A DNA stretch of 64,000 bases from Dictyostelium discoideum (GCA_000004695.1 CM000155.2:672001-736000); one strand, 5' to 3'; positions 15,916 through 39,007 are shown, counted from the first letter of the stretch. The notes: generated by a model not told the origin, from the sequence alone. Numbers and translations: made by a program.

Positions 15916-16163
15916 TTTTTTTTTTTTTGAAATTTTACAATTCTAATTATTTCCCGCCAAAATTTTTTAAAAATTTTTATAATTTTTTTTTGACAAAAAA
16001 AAAAAAAAAAAAAAAAAAAATCATTTTATTTTTATTTTGTTATTTATATGAATCTTTATGTAAATATAGGTTTTTTTTTTTTTTTTTTTCCCCTTTTAAA
16101 AAATTCATATTGAAAAGGGTATAGTTAAACAAAATAAAACAAAATAAAACAAAATAACCAAAT
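15388..16163. promoter_or_regulatory. Shared 776-bp divergent intergenic region between mnd1 (minus) and smc1 (plus)
   Basis: The two start codons face away from each other across an AT-rich spacer with long A/T runs. No motif was tested. Confidence 0.3.
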
Positions 16164-16409
16164 ATGGGTATATCAATTTTAAAAATTCAAAATTTTAAAT
16201 CATATAAAGGTAATCCCCTTATTGGTCCATTCAAGGATTTTTCATGTGTAATTGGTCCCAATGGTAGGGGAAAATCAAATATTATGGATGCTATCATCTT
16301 TGTATTAGGCCATAACTCTTCTCAAATTAGAAGTACAAAATTAAATGAATTAGTTAATACACATATTGTAACAGATAAAAGTAATTTTTTTTTTTTTTAT
16401 TTTTCTTAT

Positions 16410-16476
<67 letters not shown>

Positions 16477-19230
16477 GTAATAATAATAATAATATTAACC
16501 ATATATATATATATTTTTTTTATTTATAAAAATTTAATAATAATAAAAATAATAATAATATTAACCTTATAAGATAATAATGAAGGTGGTGATAATTCGA
16601 CTTATGTTGCAATTAATTTTAATCATCAAGGTAACAATTATAGATTTTCAAGAAAAATTATTGGTAATGGATCACAATATTTTTTTGAACAAACTCAAGT
16701 TTCAGCAGAACAATATCAAAAACATTTAAAAGATATTGGTATTGATATTGGTACAAAGAATTTCTTTGTATTTCAAGGTGATGTTGAGAGTATAGCTACA
16801 CAAAATCCAAAGCAAATTTCAGCATTTATTGATGATATCTCTGGTAGTAGAGCATTGAAATTTGAGTATGATAGATTATTGGGTGAAAAGTCTAAATGTG
16901 AAGATGACGTTTTCGCATCATACGCTAAAAGAAAAACGATAGCATTCGAGAAGGAGCAATACAAGGAGCAGTGGACCGAGGTGAAAGAGTACCAATCCAT
17001 GCAGGACCGAGTGGACTCTTTGAAAACTGATCAACAATTAGCTAAACTTTATCAAACCACCAAAGAGATGAGAAAGGAGCAAAAACTATTAGACGAAAGT
17101 AAACAACAAATCCAATCTATCCAATCGGATGAAATGAAGCCATTGGAACAACAATACACACAGACTAGTAAGAACCAGGCGTCATTGCATAAAGAGGTGG
17201 TGCAATTGGAGGATGATATCTCGAGGTTGATAAAGGGCAAGAAGAAGAAAGGCTCCGATCAGTATTCTGCCGAAGAGGAAATTAAGTATATTTCAGAGAA
17301 AATCAAGAAAACCAAATTAATCCTATCAAAAGCTGAAAACAGTCGTAGTAAACAAATACAAGAGATTGATCAACTTCGTAATGAATTAAATGAGTTTACT
17401 GAACAATTGGAGAATCTAGATGACGAAAAGGAGGTGGCAGAAACTGGGCTATCAATAAAGATGGACCATCAACAAATTGAAGAATACAATCAATTGAAAT
17501 TGCAATCAGGTAAGGAAACCTCTGGTTTAAAGATTAAATATGACCAACTATCGAGAGAGCACAAAATTGAACAGGACCAACACCAACAACTCACCTATAG
17601 ATTGGAGGAGTTTGAAACTATGAAAAAGAAATTCCAAGAATCTAAAGAGAAATTTCAAAATCAAAAAGATATTGAACAATCGAATTTCCAAGATTTAGAA
17701 CAGAAATTAAAAGAGTCAGAGAAAGAACTCGTACAATGTACCACTAGATTCAATGAGACACAACAACGTCAACAAAATTTAAATAATGATTTAGAGCGTA
17801 TTCAATATAGTCTTTCCGATTTGAAATCATTGAAATCTGAAAGTCAACGTGATAGACAATTCAATCAAACCGTTGAAACTTTGAAAAGTATTTTCCCAGG
17901 TGTTAAAGGTAAACTAATGGATTTATGCGAACCTTCACAACGTAAATATGCAACCGCATTGACTCTAACAATGGGCAAACTAATGGATGCCATCATCGTT
18001 GACACTGAAGAGACTCTAATTGGTTGTGTACGTTATTTAAAGGAGCAATTACTTGGTGTTGCAACATTTATAAGTTTAGATCGTTTACAAATGGTTAAAC
18101 CAATTAATCAACAGTTACGTCAAATTAGTGGTGGTGGTGGTGGTAGTACAGCTAAATTATTATTCGATTGTTTAAAGATTCAAAAAGGTATAGAAGATGC
18201 TGTATTGTATGCATTGGGTAATACAGTGGTTTGTGAAAGTTTAGCAGAGGCAAAGTTATTGGCATTTGGTGGTAAAGATCGTGTAAAGGTTATAACTATA
18301 CAAGGTATTAGAATCACAAAATCAGGTTTAATGAGTGGTGGTGGTTTATCATCAATTAAATCCAAATCATCACAATGGGATACTAAACGTGTTGAAGAAT
18401 TAAAGAAACAAAGAGACACCATATTGGCAGAACTATCCGATGTAATCCAATTGAATGAGATTTTCAATCAACGCCAACAATTGACAAGTCAAGTACATCA
18501 ATTGAAATCGGATTATTCATTATCAAAGAGTAAAATTGAGTTACTCAATGATAGATTGAAAAAGAATCAACAAGAATTGGAAACCAATGAAAAGGTAATC
18601 AATGAAACAATCATTCCCGAGTTATCGGAATTGAATGAAACATTGGCAAAACGTAAAACTCAATTAGATCAACTACAAAGTGAAATCAATTCAATAGAGG
18701 AGAGATATTTCAGTGGATTCTCAAAGAAATTTGGTGTTGACAATATCAGAGAGTATGAAGATAACAGGTTGGCTAAAATTCAAGAAAACATTCAAAAGAG
18801 ATTATCATTAACTGAATCGATCTCTGTGATTCAATCACGTTTAGACTATGAACAGGGTAGAGAGATTGATAATGAAATTAAACAACTCTCTGAAGAATTG
18901 AATGCAAATGAAAAGATATTAGATCAAGAATTGGAACATAAGAAAGAGAATGATGAAAAAGAGAAACAATTCAAAGAGAATCTATCCGATCTACAAAAAC
19001 AACATACTGAAAAGAAATCACAATTAGATAAAATGAATATAACCATTAAAGATTTGAAAAAACAATTATCAACTTTTAATAATCAAATCACTGATATTGA
19101 AAAATTAAGTAATCGTCATGATTTTAATATTACAAAACTTCGTGGTGTTTATCATCAAATTTTAATTGAAACTAGAAATGAAGATATTCGTTTACCAATT
19201 TTACAATTTAAAGGTAAAGAAATTGATCAA

Positions 19231-19292
<62 letters not shown>

Positions 19293-20478
19293 TAAATCTG
19301 AAGGTGAAACTGAAGATAATAATAAAAAACAAAAAAATAAAGATAGTGAAGCTGAAGTTGATGAAAGTGCTGTAAGTGAAGGTGAAAATGTTAAAAAACC
19401 AAAGAAACCAACAATTAAAAAGAAAAAATCATCAATAAAAAGAAAAAGAGAAACAAATAAAGGTGATCAAGAAGATAATCAAGAAGAAGATGAAGAAGAT
19501 GAAGATGATATATTTAATGAATCAGATGTTGAAGAAAATGAAAAACCAAATATTTTACAAGATATAATTAAAGATATAACACAAGCAATGGTACAAGATG
19601 ATATTTTAGATATTTATGAAGATGAAGCATCAATTAAATTCAATTATTCGTCATTGAAAAAACGTGTATTTGTTGATCAAAAAACTTATGAAGAATATCT
19701 TAGAAAGTTAACAATCGATATTGAAACCATTGGTAAAGAGATGAAAAGAGTTATGCCAAATTATAAAGCCTATGAGCATTTGGTTGATGTTAGTGATAAA
19801 TTGAAAAAAGTTAGAAAAGAGTTAAACCAAGCTAGAGACAATGCAAAAACAAAGATAGACTCATTCAATCGTGTTAGAGACCAAAGAAAACAATTGTTTT
19901 TAAGAGCGTTCAAGAGGATTGCAAAGAATCTCACTTCAATCTATTCAGAGTTGACAAGAGAGTTGGAACCACCTTATCATAGGGGTTCGGCTCATTTGGC
20001 TTTGGAAGACACTGAAAATCCTTTCAACTCTGGTGTAAGGTTCACTGTTATCCCACCAAATAAAAGATTCCAAGAGATGGATCAATTGAGTGGTGGTGAG
20101 AAATCAGTGGCTGCTTTGGCTTTCCTTTTCTCAACTCATGGCTTGAAATCAACTCCATTTATGATTCTCGATGAAATAGATGCCGCCTTCGATAGTGTAA
20201 ACGTTTTGAAATTGGTGCGTTATGTTAGACATAAAGCAAGTAAAGATCTTCAATTCTTGGTAATCTCTTTGAAAGAACAATTCTTTGTCCACTCTGATCT
20301 TTTAGTTGGTGTTTGTAGAGAACCAGATTCACAATCAAAATCTTTCCATTTACTTTTAGAAGAATTCCCTGAATCTGATGAAGCAAAGAAAGCTTTAATC
20401 TCAAAAGGTGACGATGAAACTGAAACTGATGGTAAAACTTCTGCAACTTCTGGTAGTAGTGAAAGTGAAAATGACTAA
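16164..20478 (+). CDS. smc1: Structural maintenance of chromosomes protein 1 (SMC1, cohesin), about 1373 aa, two exons
   Basis: Exon 1 is 16164..16380 (MGISILKIQNFKSYKG...GPNGRGKSNIMDAIIFVLG, Walker A). Donor GTAATT. The 193-bp intron 16381..16573 contains (AAT)n. Exon 2 is 16574..20478. It carries the SMC1-type QGDVESIA, the hinge SIFPGVKGKLMDLCEPSQRKYATALT, the C-terminal LSGGEKSVAALAFLF signature and Walker B FMILDEID. Confidence 0.9.
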
Positions 20479-20835
20479 ATAATACACTATAAAAAAAATA
20501 AAAATTAAAAATTAAAATAATAAATATTTTAAAATTAAAATCAATTTATATATAAATTGATAAAAGAAATAAAAAAAAAAAAAATACTAATTATGTTTTA
20601 CTAGATTTTTATTCAAATTTTTGCTAATCAGACTTGGAATTGGAAAATATTTAAAAAATTCAATTTTATTCTATTTTTCTTATATTTATAAATTATTAAA
20701 CCAAAAAAAAAAAAAAACCCATTTTATTTTTGAAATATAATTTTATTTAATTATAATTTAATTTGTTTTGAAATATTTCTTAGGTTTTATTTGAAAAATT
20801 TAGGGGGAATGATATGGTCATCTATTTTCGTAATG

Positions 20836-31606: not shown

Positions 31607-31715
31607 TCATTACATTAAAAAACACATTCGGACAAATTAAAAAAAAAAAAACAAAAATAAAAAATAAAAAATAAAAAGTTGGTTTCCGAGCTTTTAAAAT
31701 ATACTTTCAAAAATA

Positions 31716-31761
<46 letters not shown>

Positions 31762-31801
31762 CGTGTTACTAAAACCAAAATAATATTATTATATTATTCA
31801 T

Positions 31802-32746
31802 TTAATATGTAAAAAAAAAAAATGAGGCTTCTGATAAACAGTTTTTGCAACTTTCTTTTAATATTAAATTTTGGGCAATAGGACAAACTTCTTTAATAAT
31901 CTTTGTAAATGAAATTATATTTTTATTTGGAATAGTTAAATAAATGTTGATTGGAGAATGTTGTGAGGGATAACCATATAAAACACCATCTTTATCAGCA
32001 GAATATAATAAATCACCAATTCTTGTTGGAAATTTTACACCACCATTAGGTAAAACGTTACAACCAGGTTTGCTAATGTCAGCCTTAATTGAAACTTTAT
32101 GGCCGTTTCTAACTGAATTAACATTTGAAATTATACCATGTGCAAATTTTATATTTGAATGAATTGAATTTTTTAAATCATTAATTGATGTTCCTTGGAA
32201 GTCACCAAATTGACCTGGTACTCCACCCCCTCTATCGGCTGCACCTGATAAATCATAAAAATCATTACCCATTTGAACCAATTTTCTTGATTTCAAAGTC
32301 AAATCTGGAACAAAACTTCCATCAAAGGAGTATTTAATTTGTGAAGAATCACTGGTACCCACTGACAATTTTTTATCATCAAGAAATAATTCAACATTAT
32401 ATTTAACTTGGACATTTGTTATTTCATGAACATCATAATATGGTGGACGTGGTGATAATGCAACACGATGATAATCACAAATAGTATTAAGAGGTTTTAT
32501 ATAACAACCACAATCAAAGTTAGTGTGAGTTGAAGTACAATAACTATTTCCAGGATAGTGTGTTGCCGCATAATCTCGTAACAAACCTTTACAATCAATA
32601 TCACTTGGTTGTATTCCTCCGCATACTCCTGTACCACAACTACCTGAACCGTCACATTGTGTTCTTTGAGATATTACTGGTTCAAAACAACTAGTTGAGT
32701 ACAAAAATTTTTTATCAGATTCCATATGATAATCGGTAATCTTCAA
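31802..32746 (-). CDS. Hypothetical Cys/Gly-rich protein; true 5' end unresolved
   Basis: Track ORF of 314 aa. The first ATG is at 32728 (MESDKKFLYSTSCFEPVISQRTQCDGSGSCGTGVCGG...). The same frame stays open upstream to 33030 and includes a signal-peptide-like FSISSLSLLFLIITRSF, but no ATG. Confidence 0.45.
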   Translation of the reverse strand: MKITDYHMESDKKFLYSTSCFEPVISQRTQCDGSGSCGTGVCGGIQPSDIDCKGLLRDYAATHYPGNSYCTSTHTNFDCGCYIKPLNTICDYHRVALSPRPPYYDVHEITNVQVKYNVELFLDDKKLSVGTSDSSQIKYSFDGSFVPDLTLKSRKLVQMGNDFYDLSGAADRGGGVPGQFGDFQGTSINDLKNSIHSNIKFAHGIISNVNSVRNGHKVSIKADISKPGCNVLPNGGVKFPTRIGDLLYSADKDGVLYGYPSQHSPINIYLTIPNKNIISFTKIIKEVCPIAQNLILKESCKNCLSEASFFFFTY

Positions 32747-32927
32747 TCTTAAGAGAGCTATTGACTGTTTACTCTCATCCTTTAAATTATAACAACCTTC
32801 CCAACTTTTTGATGGTAATGTAAATACATATTCCCCAAAAAATGATGAAGTGATTGTACCATTACCATAATCTTTATTTATTGTTTGAATATTATTTGAA
32901 ATTAAATATATTTCATCACAAGAATAA

Positions 32928-33305
32928 CATTTTTCAACAAAAGAACGTGTAATAATTAAAAATAGTAGGGATAGAGAAGATATTGAAAAAGTTTTAAAAT
33001 ATTTCGAAAATGAAACAGAATATATTATTCAATTACTACACCATTCAGCAAAATTAAATAATGAAGAAATGTTTATGTATATATTCGAAAAGTATAAACA
33101 TACAATAACTGATAATAAAATCTATATATTAATAAATAGTATATTCAAAGATAATAATTTAAAAATGGCTCAATTTATATTTAAAAATTTTGAAAATGAA
33201 ATATCACCATTGGGTAATATCTTTTTTTGTAATGATTATGAAAACAAAATTATAAATGTAAAACATAAAAACTCACCAATCATATCAACTCTCCAAAGAA
33301 AATAA
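32928..33305 (+). CDS. Hypothetical 125-aa ORF, opposite-strand overlap with the open upstream frame of the gene at 31802
   Basis: HFSTKERVIIKNSRDREDIEKVLKYFENETEYIIQLLHHSAKLNNEEMFMYIFEKYKHTITDNKIYILINSIFKDNNLKMAQFIFKNF... Both strands are open here, so which one is coding is not resolved. Confidence 0.25.
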   Translation, partial: HFSTKERVIIKNSRDREDIEKVLKYFENETEYIIQLLHHSAKLNNEEMFMYIFEKYKHTITDNKIYILINSIFKDNNLKMAQFIFKNFENEISPLGNIFFCNDYENKIINVKHKNSPIISTLQRK

Positions 33306-33315
33306 AAACAAATTT

Positions 33316-34190
33316 ATGTTATTTCCCATAAAATACCCAGACATCTGGAAAATGTATAAAAAAACACTTGCAAATCAATGGGTAGTTGAAGAAATAGAAT
33401 CAAGTGATGATGGATTAGATTGGGAGAAAAAATTAACAAATGATGAACGTGATTTCTTCTCAAATGTTTTAGCATTTTTTGTTGCATCTTGTGGTATTAT
33501 AAATAAAAACCTTAATAGATTTATGTCTAAAGTACAAATTCCAGAAGCGAAATGTTTCTATAATTATCAAATTCATATTAAATATTTACATTCCGAAACT
33601 TATAGGTATGGCAATTAAATTATATATTCATTTATACAATTATTTATGTTTGTTTGTTTATTTATTTATTTTTATTTTTATTTTTCCCTAGTCTTTTAAT
33701 TGAAACTTGTATTAAGGATAAAAATATTAAAGATAAACTTTTTAATGCAATTGAAACAATCCCATGTGTTAAAAAGAAGGCAGAATGGGCTTTAAAATGG
33801 ATAAATGAATCATTTGAAAAACGTCTAGTAGCACTCGTAGCATTTGAAAGTATATTTTTCAGTGGAAGTTTTCGTATAATCAGTTTGTTAAAAAAGAGAT
33901 CTTTGATGCAAGGTTTAACATTTTCAAATGAATTGATTAATTAATTTGATCAAAGATTCACAAATACATATGAACAATGGTTTATAGATAACCTTCCTTT
34001 CGAAGTATATTCATTCTTTCAAACATTTAAAACAAGAAATTTACTAATTCAAATAATGAGCAACAATAAAGTGAGATATTATATAAAAAATATTTCATCA
34101 AAAACAATCATAGGCTACGCAAAAAACATTGGAATAGAAGATGAATATATTTTCTTTTTTGAAAAAATGACCAATAAAGAAATTATATAA
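33316..34190 (+). pseudogene. Ribonucleotide reductase small subunit (R2)-like gene with substituted metal ligands and an in-frame TAA
   Basis: Exon 33316..33607 (MLFPIKYPDIWKMYKK...VLAFFVASCGIINKNL...AKCFYNYQIHIKYLHSETY, donor AG|GTATGG). The intron is 33608..33690 (cccctag). Then [10 protein letters not shown]...[22 protein letters not shown]...[12 protein letters not shown]...[13 protein letters not shown] falls at 33941-33943, where R2 normally has SRDEGLH. The same frame continues FDQRFTNTYEQWF...IFFFEKMTNKEII*. Confidence 0.55.
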
Positions 34191-34375
34191 ATTGGATTAT
34201 TTATTTATTATTTAAATAAAATCACGATATTAATAAAAGACTATATTTATTTATTTTTTTGTTTTTCCCACCACCCCCAATGGTATTTTTTTGGATCGAT
34301 ACAGAACAAAAATTTAATAAACTCAATTAAATCCATCTATAATAATCAATAAAATTTAATCATATTTATAATTAA

Positions 34376-34384
34376 TATTTTATT

Positions 34385-34454
<70 letters not shown>

Positions 34455-34471
34455 TATTATATTATTATTTA

Positions 34472-34530
<59 letters not shown>
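34376..34530. repeat. (ATT)n microsatellite with interruptions
   Basis: Seen directly. Confidence 0.95.
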
Positions 34531-34713
34531 GGTTCAGTTTTATTTATTACACTTACATTACATTAATTGATTAATATGAACAGATAAAAAAAAAAATAAA
34601 AATAAAAAATGAAATAAAAAAAAAAAATAAAAAAATGAAATAAAAAACAAAAATAATAAAATGAAATAAAAAAATGAAATAAAAAAAATATATAATAAAA
34701 AACATATAATTAA

Positions 34714-35361
34714 TTAAATATTAAATAAATTTTTTATTTTTTTTTGAAAAATTAATGTGGTAATAATTAAACATATCACCAATGTTAATAAAAGTGTTAT
34801 GATTTTGTTATTTTTTATACTAATTAATATAATTTTTAAATTTAATAATAATGTCTTCAAAATAAAAAATAATACTCCCATTGAACTTAATAATATAAAG
34901 GATGATATTATTATATAATAACTTTCAAAACAAATTGGTGATAAAAATGATTTACCACATACATTCATAAATTCTTTTACCCAAATTAAAATATCCATTA
35001 CATGATTCATAATAAAATCGAATATTGTTATTTTACAATGAATTTCCTCTTTGACTTTAATAAAAGGATTATTAATATAGAAAATTTCCATATTAAATGA
35101 TTTTTCATTCGAACAGTACTTTTCAATGTTAATTTCCGTTTGATTTTCAGTTAAATTTATTATATTCTTCTCAAATATTGAATAAATGAGTATAATTTTT
35201 GGTAACGAGTCATTAAAATTTATATGCAAAGTATTAAAATCCAATCTGTAATCATAAATAATGTTGGGAATGAAAATCGAATTATTATTATTATTTCTTT
35301 CTTTTGCTTTGATTTGAATGACTAAAAAAAATAAAAAAATTAAAACGACTTTATTTATCAT
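34714..35361 (-). CDS. Hypothetical protein with N-terminal signal peptide and C-terminal TM (215 aa)
   Basis: MINKVVLIFLFFLVIQIKA at the N-terminus; hydrophobic ITLLLTLVICLIITTLIF near the C-terminus. Confidence 0.45.
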   Translation of the reverse strand: MINKVVLIFLFFLVIQIKAKERNNNNNSIFIPNIIYDYRLDFNTLHINFNDSLPKIILIYSIFEKNIINLTENQTEINIEKYCSNEKSFNMEIFYINNPFIKVKEEIHCKITIFDFIMNHVMDILIWVKEFMNVCGKSFLSPICFESYYIIISSFILLSSMGVLFFILKTLLLNLKIILISIKNNKIITLLLTLVICLIITTLIFQKKIKNLFNI

Positions 35362-35426
35362 ACTCTATAATAATATATATATAAATTGTGGGTATATATA
35401 ATAAAAAATAAATATTAAACACATAT

Positions 35427-35469
<43 letters not shown>

Positions 35470-35506
35470 AATTTTTTTTTTTTTATTTATTTATTTATCC
35501 ATTTTT

Positions 35507-35538
<32 letters not shown>

Positions 35539-35562
35539 CCCCTAAAATTTTTTCTTAAAAAA

Positions 35563-36339
35563 ATGAAATCAATCCTATTTTATTTTGTTTTATTAATATT
35601 TTTAAATAATTATGTTAATGGCAGAATTTCAGTTTCTCCCGAGTATTTATCATCTTCAGATTTCAACTCAAATCATCTTGAACAAAAATTAACAAGTGTT
35701 TATTACAATAAACCAAATTGCACTGAAGGAAATGAACTATATATAAAAATTATTAAAGGCTGTAATTTTAGAGGAAGGGTAGTAGGTAATACCACTCATT
35801 ATATGTTTTATGATGATGATCCAGAAACACCTTTAATATGCAGTAACTTTGATAAAATCTCTGAAGTAGTTTTAAAAAATACTTGTATAAATGAAATTGA
35901 TGGGAGTTCCTTTCTATATAAAGAGTACAACAATTCTGATGAACAACTTTTAAAAAAACCTGGTACAATGGTTACATATATTTACCCCTTTAAAAGTTGT
36001 AGTGAAAATGAATTTATTATAATAAATTTTGAAAATGTTTGTGAAGATATTAATGGTCAAACTGCTCGTAAAATAACATTTGATAAATCAACGCTAATTT
36101 ACCATAATTGTAGTTCTGAATGTGCTTCTTGTGATCCTCAACTAACTACAAATATAGAAAAACCTCAAGAAAAGTGTTTCAATCAAAATAATGAAACAAT
36201 ATTCACATTAACTTTATTTAATCAAAAAGAAAAAAATGCTAGTGCTTTTGATCCTTCAAAAAATGAAGGAATTATTTTATTACAAAACTTTTTATTTTTG
36301 GTCCCCATGATTACTATTTTGATATTGTTTTTTTTTTAA
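35563..36339 (+). CDS. Secreted / GPI-anchor-like Cys-rich hypothetical protein (258 aa)
   Basis: Signal peptide MKSILFYFVLLIFLNNYVNG, multiple Cys and NxT/S sites, and a C-terminal hydrophobic tail LFLVPMITILILFFF. Confidence 0.5.
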   Translation: MKSILFYFVLLIFLNNYVNGRISVSPEYLSSSDFNSNHLEQKLTSVYYNKPNCTEGNELYIKIIKGCNFRGRVVGNTTHYMFYDDDPETPLICSNFDKISEVVLKNTCINEIDGSSFLYKEYNNSDEQLLKKPGTMVTYIYPFKSCSENEFIIINFENVCEDINGQTARKITFDKSTLIYHNCSSECASCDPQLTTNIEKPQEKCFNQNNETIFTLTLFNQKEKNASAFDPSKNEGIILLQNFLFLVPMITILILFFF

Positions 36340-36884
36340 AAAAAATAATAGTTGAAATTTTAAATTTTTGTAAAAAACTCCTCAAATAAACGCACGCAAT
36401 TTATTTTTTTTTTAATTTTTTTTTTTTTTTTTTTAATTTTTTTTTTTTATTAATATTAAAATTTTTTTTTTTTTTTTTTTATTTTTTTTTTTTGAGTTTT
36501 TATACGAAAGAGAAAACATGATAACATTTGAAGAAATTGCAATAAATAAAATAAATAAAAATAATAAATATATAAACCAATTGATTGAAAATAAGCATTT
36601 ATCCCCAGATACATTCGAGGCATTCGGCAACAAATATGAATGTTATAGTCACATTAACAAAAAATATAAAACAGCAAAACTAGTATTGTCTCAGAGGTCT
36701 TTAGCAGATATATATAAAAACTTTGAAAAGAAACAGTCACCAGAAAGTGAATTCAAAAAATATCTTGAAAATAATAGCATTAAATTCGAGGGTGGGTGAT
36801 TCAATATTTTGAGTTTTTTTTTTAAAAAAAATAACAAAAAATCTCAATATTAATATTTTTTTTTATTTTTTTTTTTATTTTTTC

Positions 36885-36928
<44 letters not shown>

Positions 36929-36992
36929 TTTTTTTTTTTTCTTTTTTTTATATTTAAAAAATAAAGAAAGCAAACTCATTAATGTATTTGAA

Positions 36993-37658
<666 letters not shown>

Positions 37659-38005
37659 AATAAAACAAGAATATATTTTTTACCAAAAAAAAAGAAAATT
37701 TGATATGGAGCAAAACGAACGGGTGGTTGATAAAGAAAAACTTAAAAAAGCTATAATCAGTTTGCATTTATCAGATGAAACCTTAGCGGAGCAGGGTTTT
37801 AATAATGGATTATTGTTTTATGAAAAAGTTTTAAAAAAAATAAAAAAATATAAAAAATAAATAAACATTGTCATTTCTTGGTTAATTTTTTCATTTAATT
37901 TTTTCATTTAATTTTTTCATTTAATTTTTTCATTTAATTTTTTTTTTTTTTTTAATTTTTTTTTTTTTTTTTTTTTTTTTCTCCCATAAATTTTTTTAAG
38001 CTTTG

Positions 38006-38137
38006 CATGGCTGTTCATGAACAATTTAATATGATATAAACACAAATTCTATAAACACGAAAATTTGTGTTTATAGAAATTTGTGTTTATATCATATTAA
38101 ATTGTTCATGAACACATTTTTGGTGTTCATGAACACC
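38006..38137. repeat. Nested palindrome with three copies of the 12-bp palindrome TGTTCATGAACA
   Basis: The arm gttcatgaacaatttaatatgatataaacacaaatt (38013-38048) is matched by its reverse complement at 38078-38113 (33 of 36 positions pair, contiguously). Between them lies the hairpin ctataaacac-gaaaattt-gtgtttatag. TGTTCATGAACA sits at 38012-38023, 38103-38114 and 38124-38135. Confidence 0.85.
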
Positions 38138-39007
38138 CTATCTCTTTGAAATATGTACAGAATAAGGACTCCTCTCATAAAAAATGTGCAAATAGTTATA
38201 AATAATCGATCTATTAATTTTTTTTTTAATTTAAAAAATTCAATTTTTCAATTACTGATTTCACTTTTTTATAAAATACAATATAACAATTTTTTTTTTT
38301 TTTTTTTTTTATTATTATTGGAAAAGTTTAAAAAGTAATTTTTTGTTAGAAAAGTTTTTAAAACCAAAAGAGTACCATTGAAATAATTTGATAGTTTCTT
38401 GTTCGACATTATTTATTATTGTTATAAATTTTTTTTTTTTTTTTTTTTTCTTCTCCACTCTTTTTATTTTAATTTTTTTTTTTTTTTTTTTTTTTTTAAT
38501 TGAAAATAAAAAAAATATATTTTTATACATATTTAGAATTAATTTATTTTTTTAGAAATAAATTAAAATTAAAAAAAAAATATATATTTCCAACTTTTTA
38601 AATAGAACAATTTGGGGTTGAATAGAAAATATAATTAATTTTTTATTTGGAATTTCTGACAATTATAGTTTTGTATATATTCAAAATTTTAGAAAATTTT
38701 TACTGAACAAAAAAAAAATTTTAAATAAATATATTGTTTTTAAAAAATAGATTTGTAAAAAAAAAAAAAAAAACAAATAAATGAAAAATAGATCAACAAG
38801 AAATTCAACACCATCAAAATTTTCACTTTTTTTTTTCAAAATTTTTTTTATATATTTATTTTTATTTTTTTTTTTATTTTTTTTTTTTATTTTTTTTCAA
38901 AATTTTTAAAAAATTTGAAACCCTTTTTTTTTTTTTTTTTTTTATTTTTATTTATTTTTTTTTTTTAATTAATTAAATTAATTCTTAATAATAATATTTA
39001 TTTAATA

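Follow-up and report, generated by a model that had tools for sequence, protein, structure and literature searches.

The window analyzed here, a stretch of 64,000 nucleotides from chromosome 6 of Dictyostelium discoideum AX4, contains a locus whose spliced product is related to the R2 subunit of ribonucleotide reductase, with replaced metal ligands and an in-frame stop codon. This raises the question of whether the locus encodes a second, ligand-deficient R2 comparable to yeast Rnr4, is a pseudogene of the R2 gene rnrB, or belongs to neither of these categories; a reading made from the sequence alone had left the choice between the first two. The window is ~20% GC in composition, with (ATT)n tracts and introns that are short and AT-rich. 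Two D. discoideum proteins are 100% identical to the conceptual product, KAM9950893.1 (168 aa) and XP_629985.1/EAL61578.1/UniProt Q54E77 (257 aa), and the locus has previously been annotated as "ribonucleotide reductase-related" (XP_629985.1/Q54E77). A literature search by accession numbers and by the annotation name recovered no paper on Q54E77, XP_629985 or EAL61578. The R2-related part of the locus and the open sequence that follows it comprise these features, with positions counted from the first nucleotide of the window:

33256-33261, plus strand: relic of the rnrB start codon (ATG, 33256-33258) followed by TAA (33259-33261), from DNA alignment with the rnrB 5' end
33262-33605, plus strand: R2-like exon A, equivalent to rnrB codons ~3-119, with the first in-frame ATG at 33316
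33606-33691, plus strand: intron of 86 nt, GT..AG, phase 2, at the position of rnrB intron 2 (rnrB CDS nt 356)
33692-33944, plus strand: R2-like exon B, equivalent to rnrB codons 119-205, with a terminal TAA (33942-33944) where SRDEGLH is expected
33945-34190, plus strand: in-frame open tail of 81 codons and a stop, with no detectable relation to R2 or anything else

Joining 33262-33605 to the sequence from 33692 onward gives a product (...HSETY|SLLIET...) that is collinear with R2, as had been proposed, and all the peptides quoted in support of that proposal are present. The intron proposed with splice sites at 33607/33691 is likewise confirmed, as an 86-nt GT..AG intron, except that the G of the donor lies at 33606. 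Descent from R2 is evident from: 1) the match to the Pfam family PF00268 (Ribonuc_red_sm; E=1.2e-60); 2) the 71% amino acid identity to D. discoideum RnrB; and 3) the intron 2 that is common to both genes. The Pfam match covers only positions 2-189 of the 281 in the profile, and the alignment with the best solved structure, mouse R2 (1h0n; E=1.3e-65), reaches only residue 199 of the query. Scoring the ligand positions and the radical tyrosine on the latter alignment, in mouse numbering, gave the following:

D139: Cys (TGT, 33490-33492)
E170: Lys (AAA, 33580-33582)
H173: kept (33589-33591)
Y177, the radical Tyr: kept (TAT, 33601-33603)
E233: kept (GAA, 33846-33848)
E267 and H270: without counterpart, the TAA at 33942-33944 being aligned to R265 of SRDEGLH

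The structural alignment thereby bears out both ligand changes noticed in the sequence-only reading (Asp to Cys at D139 and Glu to Lys at E170), as well as the retention of the radical tyrosine of HSETY at the position of Y177. Read in order, the six metal ligands are C, K, H, E, absent and absent, so that two of the six are kept. Among the other features of an active R2 the copy has the radical tyrosine and lacks the complete helical bundle and the R1-binding C-terminal peptide: there is no counterpart of the ...FVLDEDF that binds R1, and the tail ends in ...EKMTNKEII. Judged by its sequence, the copy cannot act as an active R2, because: 1) two of the four retained ligand positions are replaced (Asp to Cys and Glu to Lys); 2) the helix with the last Glu/His pair is absent; 3) the last helices and the R1-binding peptide were never in the copy; and 4) the original ATG stands directly before a stop.

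The TAA had been noticed to fall exactly where the SRDEGLH ligand motif should be, with the frame continuing for about 80 more codons towards what seemed a plausible R2 C-terminus. On this basis one may consider a full-length, ligand-deficient R2 paralog of the Rnr4 kind, in which the TAA is either bypassed by read-through or an artifact of sequencing, and in which the tail represents a C-terminus that has diverged. The position of the codon is as described, and it is genuine: the segment 32800-34300 occurs exactly in an independent assembly (L003), and the Logan contigs that cover the TAA also contain it. There are five such genomic contigs, each from a different run and each 100% identical to the window along its full length; four of them (L004-L007) end at 34400 and span the TAA, and the fifth (L008) stops at 33787. 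As all are identical to the window, these contigs are uninformative on polymorphism. The frame is indeed open for 81 codons beyond the TAA, which exceeds chance expectation (P about 3e-4), and the other five frames carry 5-9 stops; the open, in-frame tail is a point on the side of a full-length paralog. To this can be added two short look-alike motifs, seen by eye only and at equal or similar spacing (EQWFIDNLPF/EKEFICESLP and FFFEK/NFFEGK). Against it, the tail fails every similarity test as an R2 C-terminus: tblastn with RnrB over the tail found no match in any frame, Smith-Waterman comparison with the C-terminal half of RnrB gave a shuffle p=0.20, DNA alignment with rnrB gave p=0.06 with low-complexity matches only, and hhalign against a profile of 24 R2 sequences gave a probability of 0.3%. 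A Pfam search of the tail also recovered no family. Furthermore, hypothetical read-through of the TAA would place Asp and Phe at the positions of E267 and H270. The identity to RnrB falls from 71% to none at a single point, which indicates a breakpoint rather than divergence, and the related genomes examined have no ortholog at the syntenic site. Confirmation of the TAA, the tail tests and the breakpoint together essentially refute a full-length Rnr4-like paralog, which we regard as highly improbable. Only its openness suggests that the tail was once coding, since its codon-position GC content (0.26/0.22/0.20) provides only a weak signal; most probably the tail was once the 3' portion of a chimeric open reading frame (ORF).

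A canonical R2 gene elsewhere in the genome, the presence of which had been raised as a check, was found: rnrB encodes a protein of 338 aa with all ligands (P0124/L001), is represented by two AX4 accessions with identical loci, and has a spliced cDNA contig (L002) on record. In a tblastn search with RnrB the copy is the only match in the window, which hence contains no other R2. D. discoideum RnrB is the closest relative of the copy, and the two genes share 71% amino acid and ~84% nucleotide identity over 187 codons (codons 16-205), the position and phase of intron 2, clade-specific residues, and the residues equivalent to H173, Y177 and E233. They differ in that the copy corresponds to just the 5' ~60% of the coding sequence, with the 3' 40% missing, has the two ligand replacements, lacks E267, H270 and the C-terminal R1-binding tail, is devoid of intron 1, contains a stop at codon 2 and is present in one lineage only. 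Homology extends from the rnrB ATG to codon ~206 (of 338) and then ceases. As it ends at the TAA, the copy is a 5' partial duplicate (~60% of the CDS) joined to unrelated sequence. Thus, the suggestion of an rnrB pseudogene stands as regards derivation and degeneracy, and fails as regards a full-length R2 interrupted by a stop. At the 5' end, codon 2 of rnrB is GAA and its counterpart in the copy is TAA; translation from the relic ATG, which shares the R2 frame and not that of the ORF upstream, reads M*NIKTHQ.... The ~12-14 codons at this end look scrambled by several small indels, with a net change of -6 nt. The extent and defects of the copy are thereby shown, as is its origin from rnrB.

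The introns provide a further point of comparison. Those of rnrB lie after CDS nt 153 (intron 1) and nt 356 (intron 2). All four of the rnrB genes that we examined have intron 1, which is precisely absent from the copy; this absence and the relic ATG with its adjacent TAA had both escaped the sequence-only reading. Intron 2 is retained in the copy but has a sequence that can no longer be aligned clearly with the parental intron (shuffle p=0.054), and the intron 2 sequences of D. discoideum and D. citrinum rnrB are still clearly alignable to each other. The combination of a lost 5' intron, a kept 3' intron and a missing 3' end fits copying from a nascent, partly spliced transcript, though we offer this as speculation. 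A signature of cDNA editing or reverse transcription was also sought in the substitutions, and the excess of sense-strand G>A (20/99) over C>T (6/57) is not significant (p=0.18).

The AX4 gene model combines the copy with an ORF that lies upstream of it, by way of an intron that is predicted only in the AX4 annotation:

32842-33305, plus strand: upstream orphan ORF, with an exon at 32842-32849, a predicted intron at 32850-32965 and an exon at 32966-33305
33214-33340, plus strand: predicted intron of the AX4 gene model only, 127 nt, 22% GC, from model reconstruction

The AX4 model (P0121) could be rebuilt exactly from the window with exons 32842-49, 32966-33213, 33341-33605 and 33692-33944. The upstream ORF, which is joined to the R2 part in this model, is a separate 115-aa gene in the annotation of the independent assembly (L003). 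It is a run of 125 open codons within AT-rich DNA; a search of 1.84 billion representative sequences recovered itself and one marginal ankyrin-repeat match (E=8e-4) with no other homolog, and no Pfam family was detected even at E<=10. The predicted intron at 33214-33340 bridges two reading frames, that of the upstream ORF and that of R2, and would excise 14 R2-homologous codons (ENKNKFMLFPIKYP) that align to rnrB codons 17-30. The most plausible view of the 257-aa AX4 model is that of a construct made by a gene finder to avoid the defects of the locus, of which a 127-nt predicted intron would be typical. We also considered whether the rnrB fragment had interrupted a single ankyrin-repeat gene, of which the upstream ORF and the 81-codon tail would be the two parts. 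This was rejected, as its only support is the marginal ankyrin-repeat match of the upstream ORF, there is no Pfam support, and no similarity was detected between the upstream ORF and the tail. For comparisons of ribonucleotide reductases the practical consequence is that Q54E77/XP_629985.1 should be left out of any tally of R2 proteins and should not be treated as an Rnr4-like subunit either.

To place the copy in its genomic setting, we compared 23-45 kb of the window by blastn with five syntenic loci, using the NmrA-like neighbor DDB_G0291732 as the anchor. These loci are from D. firmibasis, D. citrinum, D. discoideum strain ACTFIR, D. cf. discoideum and D. dimigraforme. The comparison delimited a segment within which a second notable ORF lies:

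31820-38342, no strand assigned: segment of ~6.5 kb confined to the NC4/AX4 lineage, from blastn against the syntenic loci
31802-32746, minus strand: ORF with a partial Phlebovirus G2 domain (Gc, class II fusion; PF07245, E=1.5e-11)

In all five syntenic loci the flanks aligned by blastn and the ~6.5 kb segment had no counterpart; tblastn of its ORFs against the same loci also gave no match. The left edge of the segment is fuzzy (31607-31820, poly-T) and the right edge lies at 38343. The boundaries show only low-complexity repeats, with no terminal repeats, target-site duplication or transposon hallmarks. Besides the R2-like copy, the segment includes the Gc-like and upstream ORFs and two orphan genes, one of 150 aa on the minus strand and an Asn-rich one of 641 aa. 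A protein search with the copy returned no close relative outside D. discoideum among the annotated proteomes. The copy is therefore lineage specific, and, as the segment is absent in a conspecific strain, it is dispensable. The Gc-like ORF is divergent to the upstream ORF, ~100 bp from it and ~0.5 kb from the R2-like copy. Its PF07245 match scores 44 bits, with a cut-off of 22.9, and spans profile positions 57-247 of 324. A search of 5.8 billion proteins recovered only the ORF itself; its best PDB match, a weak one, is an alphavirus E1. With no relative in the searched databases, this ORF may be the more interesting object in the region.

R2 genes are common in giant viruses, and the Phlebovirus-Gc-like ORF lies ~0.5 kb away inside the same strain-specific insertion; hence it might be supposed that the R2-like sequence is itself derived from a virus and arrived with the neighboring glycoprotein-like ORF. 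However, no viral R2 in IMG/VR exceeds 62% identity to the copy, as opposed to 71% for Dictyostelium RnrB, and the copy has both clade-specific substitutions and a spliceosomal intron position in common with the host rnrB. Several lines of evidence place it more precisely: 1) at 18 nucleotide sites it agrees with D. discoideum against D. citrinum, the reverse being true at 5. 2) At seven sites the copy sides with D. discoideum plus D. cf. discoideum, as opposed to D. citrinum plus D. firmibasis, and at one site the pattern is the opposite. 3) No site is common to the copy and AX4 rnrB alone, and the copy retains the ancestral state at 4 AX4-specific changes. 4) Some of its residues are found solely in the D. 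discoideum complex (ALA..WV, KLT, LLIETxIKDK..KDKLF), and the Q of LMQGLTF is common only to the copy and to the RnrB of D. discoideum and D. cf. discoideum. The clade-specific residues and site patterns, together with the mere 62% identity of viral R2, indicate that the host gene gave rise to the copy, and that it did so within the D. discoideum complex. This placement contradicts a viral origin, to which we attach scarcely any credence.

The remaining question is whether the copy has evolved as a protein-coding sequence. On its branch, three-taxon estimates gave dN=0.159, dS=0.275 and omega=0.58, with a bootstrap 95% interval of 0.35-1.06; as omega is >=1 in 3.4% of bootstraps, it is not significantly below 1. 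The omega of rnrB is ~0.02-0.04, which means that the constraint on the copy is relaxed ~20-fold, and 18 of its changes, including the two ligands, are at R2 sites that are >=99% invariant. Nevertheless, the pattern of substitution, while relaxed, does not appear to be neutral. When 114 substitutions were simulated with the observed spectrum a mean of 6.8 stops resulted, versus 2 observed (P=0.025). Both of the latter sit at the extreme ends, and an open run of >=198 of 201 codons has P=0.0007. The two core indels (-3 and -6 nt) are in frame, and replacements affect 22% of the R2 sites that are >=95% conserved versus 42% of variable sites (odds ratio 0.38, p=0.003). The depletion of stops, the in-frame indels, the sparing of conserved sites and the open tail suggest that the fragment was maintained in a translatable state during some of its history, and the TAA, which is one base from the parental TCA, would be a comparatively late lesion. 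The same statistics of ORF integrity could equally mean that a truncated protein is still useful.

These observations bear on two opposite readings of the copy. The first is a pseudogene fragment that was dead on arrival, i.e. never translated, drifting neutrally since the duplication and open only by luck. It accords with a copy that was partial from the outset, the stop at codon 2, the loss of ligands, the strain-specific distribution, an omega interval that extends to 1.06, and a start in which the first 14 codons look scrambled by small indels. We nonetheless consider it distinctly unlikely: it has to accommodate too few stops and too long an open run, amino acid changes that are depleted at conserved sites, and a tail that is open in frame. 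The second is a living young gene that specifies a truncated, metal-free half-domain of R2 with a non-catalytic role, for example as a partner of RnrB monomers that modulates or poisons the R2 dimer; its product would have ~185 aa if initiated at the ATG at 33316, or would be the 257-aa AX4 fusion with the upstream ORF. Under this reading the TAA at 33942 is simply the stop codon of the protein, the canonical GT..AG of the intron has been kept, the open run between the stops far above the neutral-decay prediction, the avoidance of conserved R2 sites and the in-frame core indels all favor a functional product, and two independent annotations place a protein here. Those annotations, however, differ on the start, and the only members of the protein cluster are the two models from these annotations and a genomic ORF that is unspliced; none derives from an assembled spliced transcript, unlike the case of rnrB (L002). 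The copy is, moreover, missing from the syntenic site in 5/5 related genomes, including that of another D. discoideum strain, and combines its omega of 0.58 with changes at nearly invariant R2 sites. Stable folding is also doubtful given that ~40% of the helical bundle is missing. Accordingly, a living gene appears possible but on the unlikely side. More doubtful still is a very young, strain-specific chimeric gene in which selection has preserved the open frame of a metal-free N-terminal half of R2, which serves non-catalytically, for example as an RnrB-binding modulator or decoy, and arrived in a 6.5 kb mosaic insertion together with the bunyavirus-Gc-like fragment. If true, it would show a new gene, derived from a core enzyme of DNA-precursor synthesis, at the moment of its birth or of its almost immediate death.

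On balance we favor, with some confidence, the interpretation that the copy is a lineage-specific, catalytically dead 5' partial duplicate of rnrB that was once a chimeric ORF and is now a decaying relic. Under this interpretation a fragment of rnrB that begins at the start codon, extends to ~codon 206, and still has intron 2 but has precisely lost intron 1, would have come to lie within the ~6.5 kb mosaic segment exclusive to the NC4/AX4 lineage and been joined in frame to unrelated open sequence. The resulting non-catalytic chimeric ORF may have been translated for a time under constraint that was much relaxed but real, before a single-base change (TCA to TAA) truncated it at the end of the R2 part, leaving a relic that would now be heading towards pseudogene status. 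Consistent with a relic, a functional parent is still present in the genome and the copy has disabling lesions, namely the TAA codons at positions 2 and 206, the missing 3' 40% and the lost ligands. Both its past translation and its present lack of function are what we infer from these features. The description of the pseudogene as recent proved half right, as the copy differs from its parent at 114 of ~600 aligned nucleotides. The dS on its branch is about 0.25, versus 0.048 between the rnrB genes of AX4 and D. cf. discoideum, and so long a branch fits poorly with the recent-looking insertion. Possibly, the copy arose earlier elsewhere and then moved, its source was an unsampled close relative, or it has evolved faster. 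On a small scale, the copy neatly illustrates how part of an essential gene can be duplicated and lose its active site while bearing traces of having kept its translatability, and it does so within a mosaic segment that is polymorphic for presence and absence.

Comparison with characterized systems helps to define what kind of element this is. Like yeast Rnr4 (1jk0_B, 1sms), with which an analogy had been drawn, the copy is an R2 homolog that has lost iron ligands and would have no cofactor of its own. Rnr4 (Y4), however, has the full-length R2 fold with the whole helical bundle and the C-terminus, pairs with Rnr2, is conserved among yeasts and is functionally required. The copy ends after helix E, at codon ~206 of 338, and matches yeast Rnr2 (E=3e-61) far better than it does Rnr4 (E=1.9e-36). 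It has neither the full-length fold nor conservation under purifying selection (omega 0.58, no ortholog at the syntenic site in five related genomes). The analogy thus fails, the copy being truncated, without two ligands, the last three helices and the R1-binding tail, and absent from the syntenic site in five related genomes. The R2c of Chlamydia and R2lox similarly are proteins of the R2 fold with altered residues at the cofactor site, but they are full length and have a complete six-ligand site that is differently metallated, whereas the site of the copy is destroyed, two carboxylates having been replaced by Cys and Lys, and lacks one half. Closer parallels are offered by jingwei-type chimeras and by captures by Helitrons and Pack-MULEs, in which a gene fragment with an intron is likewise fused to an unrelated ORF, evolves in a strongly relaxed manner and shows lineage-specific presence and absence. 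In contrast to the Helitron and Pack-MULE captures the copy has no transposon hallmarks, terminal repeats or target-site duplication, and its intron pattern, with one precisely lost and one kept, is typical of neither a pure DNA capture nor a processed retrocopy. The category to which the copy comes nearest is that of a partial-duplicate gene relic or short-lived chimeric gene.

A partial Phlebovirus glycoprotein G2 domain and several repeats were delineated in and around the part of the window that carries the R2-like copy, a partial duplicate of rnrB, as follows (positions are those of the window):

25.3-26.95 kb and 27.65-29.35 kb, MFS-like gene, tandem duplicate
31802-32746, minus strand, ORF of 314 aa encoding part of a Phlebovirus glycoprotein G2 domain (Gc, class II fusion; Pfam PF07245)
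34360-34530, (ATT)n microsatellite, shortly downstream of the R2-like tail, the open codons that follow the R2-like copy
36993-37658, very long (AAT)n/poly-Asn coding repeat within the Asn-rich 641-aa gene

The 314-aa ORF was matched by the Pfam profile with an E-value of 1.5e-11 over profile positions 57-247 of 324, and its GC periodicity (0.40/0.39/0.13) is strong and of the coding type. A search of 5.8 billion proteins recovered no relative of this ORF besides itself, none was present in IMG/VR, and the ORF is missing at the syntenic loci of all five related genomes. It may be an endogenous fragment, viral or env-like, of the D. discoideum genome.

The whole segment at ~31820-38342 (~6.5 kb) is present in the NC4/AX4 lineage and absent from D. 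firmibasis, D. citrinum, D. dimigraforme, D. cf. discoideum and another D. discoideum strain. Orphan ORFs are interspersed with gene fragments in this mosaic segment, and no mobile-element ends are recognisable in it. The (AAT)n repeat of the 641-aa gene and the (ATT)n microsatellite next to the R2-like tail form mutual long imperfect inverted repeats.

The two MFS-like copies share ~88% nucleotide identity, and their number varies across the related genomes, with one copy each in D. firmibasis and D. citrinum and at least two in D. discoideum strains. Elsewhere in the window, the stretch at 16000-20500 stands out in composition (GC ~0.285, AT skew ~+0.2, GC skew up to +0.23) and corresponds to a 1207-aa ORF at 16855-20478.

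Finally, comparison of the AX4 window at 23-45 kb with the syntenic locus of strain ACTFIR, which is labelled D. discoideum, showed just 81-93% identity across the region. As this divergence is comparable to that of D. cf. discoideum, either polymorphism is unusually high in this region or ACTFIR comes from a distinct lineage.
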